Part shown: piece by piece, positions 21,966 to 23,642 of the stretch | How positions within the stretch are numbered: position 1 is the stretch's first letter | Layout: each line of letters opens with the position of its first letter | Notes under the pieces: generated by a model | What the model was told of the DNA's origin: nothing | What the model saw: only the letters and a program-made list of their open reading frames with translations | The model's database searches: none | Position numbers and translations under genes: made by a program | Assembly (NCBI GenBank): GCA_028228555.1 | Contig: JAOJBP010000005.1 | Location: forward strand, 20,197-84,196 | Length of the DNA: 64,000 nt | Reading direction: 5' to 3' | Source: Candidatus Thioglobus sp. | Lineage (GTDB): Bacteria > Pseudomonadota > Gammaproteobacteria > PS1 > Pseudothioglobaceae

Positions 21966-22481
21966 ATGCAAACAGCTTATTTTGCCGGCGGATGTTTTTG
22001 GTGTGTTGAAGCCGTCTTTCAACGAATTCAAGGTGTGTTAAGTGTTGAGTCTGGATATTGTAACGGCTTAACCCAAAACCCAACCTATGCAGATATATGT
22101 ACTGGGTCATCGGGACATGCTGAAGTGGTCAAAATTAATTTTGATGAATCTCGAGTAAACTTTGAGCAATTACTTGTTGTCTTTTTTGCAACGCACAACG
22201 CGACTACACTAAATCAACAGGGTAATGACAGAGGTACGCAATATCGCTCTGGCGTTTTCTACACTAATGATGCACACAAAAATCTAGCCAATGCTTACAT
22301 CCAAACCCTGGGTGATAATATTGTGACTGAAGTCAGTGCGCTGGATGTATTTTATCCAGCAGAAGCATATCATCAAAACTACTTTAATAACAACTCTAAT
22401 CAGCCTTATTGCCAATTATTAATTGCACCAAAGCTTGACAAATACTTTAATCAAAATACGAAAGAAGATAATAATGAATGA
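21966..22481 (+). CDS. msrA: Peptide methionine sulfoxide reductase MsrA
   Basis: GGCFWCVE, GHAEVV and AEAYHQNY motifs. Confidence 0.96.
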   Translation: MQTAYFAGGCFWCVEAVFQRIQGVLSVESGYCNGLTQNPTYADICTGSSGHAEVVKINFDESRVNFEQLLVVFFATHNATTLNQQGNDRGTQYRSGVFYTNDAHKNLANAYIQTLGDNIVTEVSALDVFYPAEAYHQNYFNNNSNQPYCQLLIAPKLDKYFNQNTKEDNNE

Positions 22482-23217
22482 CCAGGAGCTGCTTAGGTAT
22501 TCTCGTCAAATTATGCTGCCACAGGTTGGCATTGAAGGTCAGCAGTGTTTGTTAGATTCTACCATGTTGTTAATCGGCTTAGGTGGGTTGGGCTCGCCAA
22601 GCGCTCTTTATTTGGCAGCAGCAGGTGTGGGGCATATCATTATTGCAGATTTTGACAAGGTTGAATTGTCAAATCTTCAGCGCCAAGTTGTTCACCATAC
22701 TCAAGATATCGACGAATACAAAGTAGACTCCGCACAAAATAAAATGCTGGCCATTAATCCGAATATTAAAGTAACCACACTTAAAGATCTGAGCGAAGAC
22801 AACCTTAAGACTTGGGTGAGCAAAGCAGATGTCGTCTTAGATGGTACGGATAATTTCGAGACACGTTTTAAGATAAACGCAGCTTGTGTGCAAGAGAAAG
22901 TAGCCTTAGTATCTGCTGCTGTTGTTCGCTTTGAAGGTCAGTTGTCAGTATTTAAAGGCCATGAGTCAGACCAGCCGTGTTATCAGTGCTTATATCCTAA
23001 GGAGGGTGAGAATAATGAAAATTGCTCAGAAAATGGCATCCTTGCACCAGTTGCAGGTGTTATGGGGACATTGCAAGCACTACAAGCTATTAAGGTTGTT
23101 TTAAATCTAGGTGATCAGCTGATTGGAAAGCTGATGATAATGGATGCTCTAAATCTTGATTTTAGAACGGTTAAGATTAGCAAAGATACTCATTGCTCAG
23201 TTTGTAACGCTTTATAA
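22474..23217 (+). CDS. moeB: MoeB/ThiF family adenylyltransferase
   Basis: RYSRQI, GLGGLG, SNLQRQ, CYQC and C-terminal CSVC; start set at ATG 22474 overlapping the msrA stop. Confidence 0.88.
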   Translation: MNDQELLRYSRQIMLPQVGIEGQQCLLDSTMLLIGLGGLGSPSALYLAAAGVGHIIIADFDKVELSNLQRQVVHHTQDIDEYKVDSAQNKMLAINPNIKVTTLKDLSEDNLKTWVSKADVVLDGTDNFETRFKINAACVQEKVALVSAAVVRFEGQLSVFKGHESDQPCYQCLYPKEGENNENCSENGILAPVAGVMGTLQALQAIKVVLNLGDQLIGKLMIMDALNLDFRTVKISKDTHCSVCNAL

Positions 23218-23278: not shown

Positions 23279-23308
23279 TTGAACTATTGACATCCATCAC
23301 TGTATAAT
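23279..23308 (+). promoter_or_regulatory. Probable sigma70 promoter of the 60-aa gene
   Basis: TTGAAC, 18 nt spacer, TATAAT (23303-23308). Confidence 0.5.
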
Positions 23309-23396
23309 AATATTAGATTATAAATTTTATTGATTAAAGTATTTTTTAGCTGTAGTTTCTTACAGTGGATGCTTTAAGTTTTTTTAGGAGTAGAAT

Positions 23397-23579
23397 ATGA
23401 GCGGACAAATGCAAAGACCTGCAGTTCCTACAGGTGTAGTTGGTAAAGAAGGTTTCAGAGTTACAACAACTCAAAAAACTGTAGATGGTAAAGTACCTGC
23501 AGGTTTTCACGTTGGTTACACAACTGAATGGGATTCAGTACAAACAGAAGTGCCATACCAAACACCTAAGAAGCCATAA
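23397..23579 (+). CDS. Stand-alone small hypothetical protein (60 aa)
   Basis: SD TAGGAG, own promoter and terminator, codon choice like hupB (GGT/GTA/GTT/ACA/TAC/TTC). Confidence 0.85.
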   Translation: MSGQMQRPAVPTGVVGKEGFRVTTTQKTVDGKVPAGFHVGYTTEWDSVQTEVPYQTPKKP

Positions 23580-23601
23580 TTTATAACTAAATTATTGGAA
23601 T

Positions 23602-23642
23602 AAAAAAAGCCGCAAACTGAGCAATTAGTTTGCGGCTTTTTT
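23602..23642 (+). terminator. Intrinsic terminator after the 60-aa gene
   Basis: AAAAAAAGCCGCAAACT-GAGCAATT-AGTTTGCGGCTTTTTT. Confidence 0.9.

Follow-up and report, generated by a model that had tools for sequence, protein, structure and literature searches.

We report a family of small, unnamed proteins that is almost entirely confined, in the searches made, to sulfur- and iron-oxidizing Proteobacteria with the AprM-type "lineage I" oxidative APS reductase. The member studied here, which we call X, has 60 amino acids and is encoded at positions 23397-23579 on the forward strand of the window, by which we mean the whole analyzed stretch of 64,000 nucleotides from Candidatus Thioglobus (SUP05 clade; genome of 1.25 Mb in 27 contigs). 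The gene is real, selected and codon-optimized. Because the family lies inside or beside the APS reductase gene cluster in most other sulfur-oxidizing carriers, X is probably an overlooked partner of this sulfite-oxidizing enzyme. From its linkage and co-occurrence, a functional tie of X to the AprM-type APS reductase pathway is likely. The more specific reading that we favor, in which X would be an abundant, non-catalytic accessory protein or modulator of the enzyme, is put forward tentatively and with not quite even chances.

SUP05/Thioglobus bacteria, together with related lineages, account for a large share of the sulfur oxidation that takes place in oxygen-minimum zones, vent plumes and chemosynthetic symbioses. 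Among the enzymes that these bacteria express most is AprBA, which serves as a standard marker gene. Proteins of about 55 aa often go unnamed when metagenome-assembled genomes are annotated. The present analysis points to one such protein, conserved and probably abundant, and in addition to four unannotated conserved genes of the apr cluster.

Results and Discussion

An earlier note on this DNA had read the X locus as a complete monocistronic unit with a promoter, a leader of about 80 nt, a Shine-Dalgarno site and a strong terminator. All of these elements were located and, the -35 hexamer of the promoter apart, they are conserved in the genus:

23279..23308, + strand: promoter-like site, TTGAAC (23279-23284), 18-nt spacer and TATAAT (23303-23308), with an A-rich tract upstream
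23338..23373, + strand: conserved 5'-UTR RNA element with two stems (RNAalifold consensus)
23386..23390, + strand: Shine-Dalgarno site AGGAG, 6 nt 5' of the ATG
23397..23579, + strand: complete coding sequence of X, 60 aa, ATG start, member of an unnamed family of about 53-62 aa
23603..23642, + strand: intrinsic terminator, GC-rich stem between an A-run and a T-run

The promoter named in the note, TTGAAC-N18-TATAAT, is the top promoter-like site of the region in a promoter scan, with 10/12 matches. When 19 genus-level loci were aligned, its -10 box CTGTATAAT proved invariant and the A-rich tract 5' of the promoter was conserved; the -35 hexamer TTGAAC showed no conservation across species. A perfect TTGACA at 23287-23292 was considered as the -35 box of TATAAT 23303-23308 and rejected, because the 10-nt gap is too close to pair; the scan partners this hexamer with AATATT at a spacing of 16 nt (10/12 matches). 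The distance from the -10 box to the ATG gives a leader of about 82 nt, which is kept in all 19 aligned loci, and (T)AGGAG is kept in 18 of them, the other one (L013) having T-GGAG. The terminator is indeed strong (-25.7 kcal/mol, z = -8.0 against shuffles), and its hairpin occurs in all 19 genus loci with a varying stem sequence.

Homologues under purifying selection are present. In a first sample, 18/18 additional genomes of the genus, as well as one genus outside it, had a full-length open homologue. Codon alignments of 185 pairs put the median pairwise dN/dS at 0.25, and synonymous differences were numerous. Since the open reading frame, the -10 box, the leader, the Shine-Dalgarno site and the terminator are all conserved and dN/dS is low, the unit is not a product of chance. 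One might still read it mainly as a non-coding RNA with a spurious frame, as conservation of the leader within the genus equals or exceeds that of the coding region. This idea is effectively refuted and keeps next to no probability: the frame is open in every homologue, dN/dS is about 0.25 and many of the nucleotide changes are synonymous, protein identity of about 50% reaches across classes, and both the Shine-Dalgarno site and the ATG are conserved.

Upstream of X lie an msrA-like gene (21966-22481) and then a gene for an adenylyltransferase of the ThiF/MoeB family (22423-23217) that ends in CxxC. From its annotated TTG start the latter would overlap msrA by 59 nt, and the true start is therefore probably further downstream. 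Reading of the translations gives glyA, nrdR and radA on the downstream side. The pairing of the ThiF gene with X is conserved in 17/17 Thioglobus loci, and glyA is the next gene 3' of X in only part of these, other ORFs lying between them elsewhere. A RiPP precursor, which would call for adjacent modifying enzymes and a variable core, was considered and rejected: the neighbors in Thioglobus are the moeB/thiF-like gene and glyA, and the whole peptide is conserved, its C-terminus most of all. In two Thioglobus genomes (L009 and L010, 1360-1680) no stop codon interrupts the 46 codons 5' of X, which creates a 107-aa open frame. This extension is most likely untranslated, because the Shine-Dalgarno site and the ATG are retained.

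Hallmarks of very high expression had also been claimed for the gene. The codon pattern is correct by count (Gly GGT 6/7, Val GTT or GTA 8/9, Tyr TAC 2/2, His CAC 1/1), as is the composition, in which Cys is absent. With 24 ribosomal-protein genes of the same genome as reference (contig C7, located via rplB), X has a codon adaptation index (CAI) of 0.752, above the ribosomal median of 0.696 and a genome median of 0.577. It ranks 7th among 1209 genes, and only 2.4% of random 59-codon gene windows reach its value. At the level of the sequence the hallmarks are thus there, and codon usage and expression signals together suggest that X is probably highly expressed. The predicted tryptic peptides are VTTTQK and the 26-residue VPAGFHVGYTTEWDSVQTEVPYQTPK.

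The statement that X belongs to no recognizable family was borne out. Pfam and NCBIfam scans gave zero matches even at E <= 10, a PDB sequence search with an 89-sequence profile gave none, and an ESM Atlas search returned no usable match. The exact protein is found on 297 contigs in public collections, where it is always called "hypothetical protein". Searches by pattern and tblastn, with one genome per prokaryotic species, located relatives well beyond the genus in 132 genome stretches of sulfur and iron oxidizers. The carriers are lithotrophs that include Thiogranum, Gallionella, Nitrosomonadales, Chromatiaceae, Thiotrichaceae and Piscirickettsiaceae, and further Granulosicoccaceae, Leucothrix, Cocleimonas, bivalve symbionts, Magnetococcales and a few Alphaproteobacteria. 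When 1.8 billion representative proteins were searched exhaustively with an HMM, only 33 clusters emerged, all of them short proteins of the same kind. Longer fused forms were searched for as well, and the search found only gene calls on single contigs that join X to a neighbor, namely the SlyD-like protein plus X (P0104) and X plus the N-terminus of Sat, with X directly before sat (P0105). We rejected both as real fusions and take them as direct adjacency.

Outside Thioglobus the protein has 52-56 aa (about 53) with the near-invariant C-terminus FQKEVPYQTPKKP, and its consensus reads MS..xTRPKVPEG....TTxQ....KGFVGYxTxWExFQKEVPYQTPKKP. The Thioglobus form has two short loop insertions relative to the other members. 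The family motifs are RPxVPxG, VTTxQ, GYxTxW and (Q)KEVPY(Q/E)TPKKP, and the termini are the most conserved parts. In a 33-sequence alignment the prolines P11, P57 and P60 are invariant and P8 and P53 nearly so. The protein carries a small net positive charge. No Cys or His is conserved in the family, and a redox or sulfur-carrier role is therefore excluded by the sequence.

We also predicted the structure. The AF2 model from the 89-sequence alignment (mean pLDDT 78.7, pTM 0.51) has three antiparallel strands, formed by residues 13-15, 22-28 and 38-45, and extended, proline-rich N- and C-terminal segments that carry the most highly conserved motifs. In the model, such extended and conserved termini would suit docking peptides. 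A first model, made from a shallow alignment, had reached a pLDDT of 63.7 and gave no fold match. The fold search with the better model gave nothing beyond chance either (Foldseek best E 1.4, VIA-align best Z 2.5).

For the genomic context we used the best 80 of the 132 relative-bearing stretches, in which ORFs were called and clustered; 63 of them are species-representative loci from outside Thioglobus. At least one cluster gene, that is aprM, aprB, aprA or one of four companions, lies within +-4 kb of X in 51/63 of these loci, and 48/63 have AprA, AprB, AprM, the 116-aa protein or the SlyD-like protein near X. Counted singly over the same range, AprA is near X in 43 loci, the SlyD-like protein in 43, the 116-aa protein in 42, the TPR protein in 31 and the HIT protein in 24; HIT is immediately 5' of X in 24 loci. 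An apr-cluster gene is absent from this range in 12/63 loci. The linkage spans many families. The co-localization of X with aprM-aprB-aprA is therefore conserved across distant lineages, Thioglobus itself being the exception. Indeed, the "stand-alone" gene of the earlier note describes Thioglobus only, as X lies in or beside the aprMBA cluster in most other carriers.

The neighbors were identified as AprA (TIGR02061, 1090.7 bits) and AprB (TIGR02060, 199.9 bits), with a membrane protein 5' of aprB at the position of aprM. On the 3' side of aprA the order is 116-aa protein, SlyD-like FKBP, TPR protein, HIT protein and X. The 116-aa protein (116-121 aa) has no match in Pfam or NCBIfam. The SlyD-like FKBP (168-169 aa) matches NF008008 with E 5.7e-17, which is under the curated cut-off of the model, and has no Pfam match. 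The TPR protein has about 342 aa and occurs in many lineages; the HIT protein has 137 aa and resembles ATP adenylyltransferases. X holds its cluster position whichever way it is oriented, being either in antisense or the final gene behind HIT, TPR or SlyD-like, and a DUF4279 gene is often found on the opposite strand of these loci. In a second, lucinid-symbiont-like arrangement X is antisense, with the SlyD-like gene on one side and additional operon genes, GNAT and HIT among them, on the other. Seven loci (L075, L079, L090, L091, L095, L096, L100) have the order aprM-aprB-aprA-116aa-SlyD-like-(X)-109aa-GNAT(Acetyltransf_6)-211aa-154aa-HIT, and the extra genes of this operon are likewise uncharacterized.

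In the host genome sat-aprM-aprB-aprA-116aa-SlyD-like is on contig C22, HIT on C12 and X on C23, and neither a TPR nor a DUF4279 gene was found in this genome. The pair of 116-aa and SlyD-like genes comes directly after aprA in most of the 63 loci (L038-L100), with counts of 42 and 43, respectively, and does so in the host as well (C22:34128-35005, outside the window; L103:5129-6003). None of the 116-aa, SlyD-like, TPR and HIT genes seems to have been described as a member of apr clusters. The literature that we searched does not mention X, a small apr-associated protein, SlyD together with aprBA or an extended cluster, and X is also unmentioned in the searched literature on highly expressed hypothetical proteins of SUP05. 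Around the HIT orthologue of the host (L102, C12:128452-131549) we saw four to five small secreted proteins rich in N, G, W, M and P, with CAI ranks from 23 to 579 of 1209, which look like sulfur-globule proteins. In another Thioglobus genome (G009:C8:933-1428) the match to the HIT orthologue is split into residues 1-95 and residues 97-130, which suggests a frameshift or a broken gene.

Next to linkage stands co-occurrence. In a class-wide sample of 401 evenly drawn genomes, X is present in 41 (about 10%) and AprA in 107; these and the following counts are descriptive, because related genomes are not independent and the statistical strength is overstated. AprA was found in 35/41 X carriers, and at least 37/41 have evidence of AprA once contig breaks are counted. 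Four of the six exceptions were examined: two (G081, G067) are explained by contig breaks and have apr-cluster genes immediately adjacent to X, and one genome that is 95% complete (G197) has X with no AprA match and no apr-cluster gene on the X contig. In 24/41 X-positive genomes, X and aprA share a contig and are no more than 5 kb apart. When the AprA copies are grouped by bit score and not by tree, X is present in 30/36 genomes with AprA above about 1010 bits and in at most 5/71 with lower or partial matches. The higher-scoring group includes every AprM-linked copy that we inspected, and we infer that it corresponds to the "lineage I" of Meyer and Kuever (PMC2211403). That X occurs only where AprA occurs is thus a near-rule and not a strict one (35/41 plus the two contig-break cases; 17/18 in the family sample).

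The family sample comprised 81 Thioglobaceae genomes from 19 genera. AprA is present in 17/19 genera and X in 5/19, the latter in 11/11, 1/1, 1/1, 1/1 and 3/3 of the genomes of these genera. Many of the X-negative genomes are complete single contigs. X is therefore optional for AprMBA and not an obligate subunit by presence in every genome of the lineage. A HIT orthologue (>200 bits) occurs in 17/18 X-positive and about 27/63 X-negative genomes of the family; together with the AprA counts this shows nested distributions, X within HIT within AprA.

These numbers also bear on the roles that the earlier note had guessed. A core function does not fit a protein found in a tenth of the class sample and in a minority of the genera of its own family. 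A ribosome-associated factor of the kind of RMF, Sra or the small r-proteins was rejected, as there is no family match and the distribution tracks AprA. The granule-associated factor failed on the same distribution, and X has no signal peptide; specifically, a sulfur globule protein (Sgp) was dismissed for the missing hydrophobic N-terminus and Sec signal and the missing Gly/Tyr-rich repeats. The guess of an enzyme-associated factor fits the linkage of X to the apr cluster and their co-occurrence. For the accessory role that we favor, it has to be weighed that X is unlinked to apr in Thioglobus, that the 12 loci mentioned above are without apr genes and that X is dispensable.

Two other roles within the same pathway were considered. 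X might bind Sat or the HIT enzyme, a possible APS phosphorylase, and thereby act as adaptor or regulator where APS is consumed, not on AprBA; its two termini might then tether Sat/HIT to AprBA and hand APS on, as a bivalent scaffold similar to CP12. The position of HIT as immediate 5' neighbor, its resemblance to ATP adenylyltransferases and its enrichment in the X-positive Thioglobaceae genomes speak for such an adaptor, as do the contig with sat directly after X (P0105) and the two separate conserved terminal motifs. We nevertheless judge it rather improbable: the distribution of the HIT orthologue is much broader than that of X, HIT, sat and X are at three separate places in Thioglobus, the HIT activity is only putative, and the nesting may reflect stepwise gene loss alone.

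Alternatively, X could work with the SlyD-like prolyl isomerase and the TPR protein while AprBA folds or is loaded with cofactors, either as an assembly or maturation factor or as a dedicated client. The cluster does encode such an FKBP, although at a sub-cut-off NF008008 score, and a TPR protein; five prolines of X are conserved, and in one gene call (P0104) X is joined to the SlyD-like protein. That terminal peptides are the typical ligands of TPR domains also counts in favor. Thioglobus, however, has X yet no TPR gene, and the AprMBA lineages that lack X evidently mature their enzyme. The codon usage is informative here. X is among the top codon-adapted genes, which would be unusual for an assembly factor, whereas the SlyD-like gene ranks only 948th of 1209 and the 116-aa gene 782nd; aprA and aprB rank 27th and 73rd. 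This rank groups X with AprA and AprB and is more in keeping with a partner or modulator made in quantity than with an assembly factor present at low level. We consider the role in assembly quite unlikely.

We then turn to the leader. The conserved element has an outer 7-bp stem (AAGTATT / GGATGCT), an internal loop UUUA and an inner 7-bp hairpin (GCUGUAG / UUACAGU), and it is included in the MFE fold. Over 25 sequences 96.3% of the cells are paired, with compensatory changes in 10/14 pairs; slid controls reach 32-60% paired, and no shuffle attains the observed covariation. The covariance model R1 scores 56.6 bits at the X leader, with the runner-up in the 1.25-Mb genome at 20.7 bits, and it also finds the element 5' of X in a locus outside the training set (L064). 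The same architecture with a different outer-stem sequence is present 5' of X in Chromatiaceae-, Thiotrichaceae- and Piscirickettsiaceae-like genomes. Rfam gave no match in 23279-23396 even at E <= 1, and a scan of the X region gave sub-threshold matches on the terminator only. We rejected the element as a regulon marker, as the model matches the leader of X alone in the host genome; this single match indicates that the element is gene-specific.

A second leader type was observed where X follows HIT. It reads GUCAG-N-GGGAGGGG-CUGAC-N-CCUCCC, lies about 30-100 nt upstream of X (L038-L056, L060-L061, L065, L070-L074, L078) and has its -10 box just 3' of the HIT stop codon. Here 97% of the cells pair and 4/11 pairs show compensatory changes, which is weaker support. 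Because its two helices cannot nest, this leader is pseudoknot-like; alternatively, CCUCC could pair with the Shine-Dalgarno site in an anti-SD/anti-anti-SD switch. The two covarying leader RNAs would be a putative case of gene-specific post-transcriptional control in a group dominated by uncultured organisms.

Such a gene-specific structured leader resembles the autoregulated leaders of ribosomal and RNA-binding proteins, and X may accordingly be asked to do something without a mechanistic tie to APS reductase, for example as an RNA-binding or stress protein that autoregulates via its leader. The proximity to apr would then reflect co-regulation or the shared ancestry of a gene island of sulfur oxidizers, which agrees with the unlinked gene of Thioglobus, with the loci that have no apr gene nearby and with X being optional for AprMBA. 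We regard this as unlikely, given the linkage across many families and in both orientations and the near restriction of X to AprA-positive genomes. Moreover, X has no known RNA-binding fold or family, and its positive charge is small.

Conclusion

In summary, we favor X as an accessory protein of AprM-type APS reductase. It would be a small, soluble, cytoplasmic protein with a three-stranded antiparallel sheet and two extended proline-rich termini, through which it may bind AprBA, or AprBA plus its membrane partner AprM. In this way it could stabilize, tune or localize the oxidation of sulfite to APS, as DsrD modulates DsrAB. In Thioglobus the gene may have left the apr cluster for its own strongly signaled transcription unit with a structured leader. 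Abundance, binding to AprBA/AprM and the modulatory role are in all cases what the genomic and predicted data suggest. For lineage I Apr the electron-transfer partner, the membrane linkage and the further needs of the enzyme have been described as unresolved (PMC2211403).

One may go further and speculate that X is an overlooked third polypeptide of the AprM-type system, which we consider possible but doubtful. An abundant 6-kDa chain would dock AprBA to AprM, or tether Sat/HIT to AprBA for the hand-over of APS, by its termini; its synthesis would be set post-transcriptionally by the leader RNA; and together with the 116-aa, SlyD-like, TPR and HIT proteins it would form an extended "apr" module. 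To our knowledge, published purifications of APS reductase report alpha and beta subunits only, which counts against X as a partner of the enzyme; a chain of 6 kDa is easily overlooked on gels. If this reading is true, current models of bacterial sulfite oxidation have missed the extended module.

The closest precedent for the role is DsrD, a small protein of the dsr operon that is an allosteric activator of DsrAB (PMC8794893). Like X, it is small, free of cofactors, lineage-restricted and encoded with a dissimilatory sulfur enzyme, and we liken X to it also in that DsrD was long annotated from context alone and is not needed for catalysis as such. The analogy is one of role only: we saw no relation in sequence or fold, and DsrD acts on the reductive DsrAB, in contrast to the oxidative AprM-type AprBA. 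DsrD is thus a precedent for a small operon-encoded modulator, and by analogy a modulatory role of X is hypothesized. The known partners of APS reductase, AprM and QmoABC (PMC2211403, PMC3333476), are also encoded with aprBA and follow the AprBA lineage, just as X follows the AprM-linked, higher-scoring AprA group. However, AprM and QmoC sit in the membrane and redox cofactors are bound by Qmo, whereas X is a soluble protein of 6 kDa without conserved Cys or His and is absent from many AprM-bearing genomes. CP12, the disordered GAPDH/PRK scaffold of the Calvin cycle, shares with X the very small size and the conserved terminal motifs that could bridge two enzymes; it uses two Cys pairs and redox control, of which X has none, and the two are not homologous. 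Finally, the leader recalls those of ribosomal proteins and the ompA-type 5' hairpins, in that a gene-specific, covarying stem-loop lies between promoter and Shine-Dalgarno site of a gene that is probably highly expressed. It differs from the known autoregulatory or stabilizing 5'-UTR stem-loops in having no Rfam family and in being replaced by a second, unrelated type in other lineages. X is better described as a member of an unnamed small-protein family that is attached to a known enzyme system and has its own conserved, private leader RNA.
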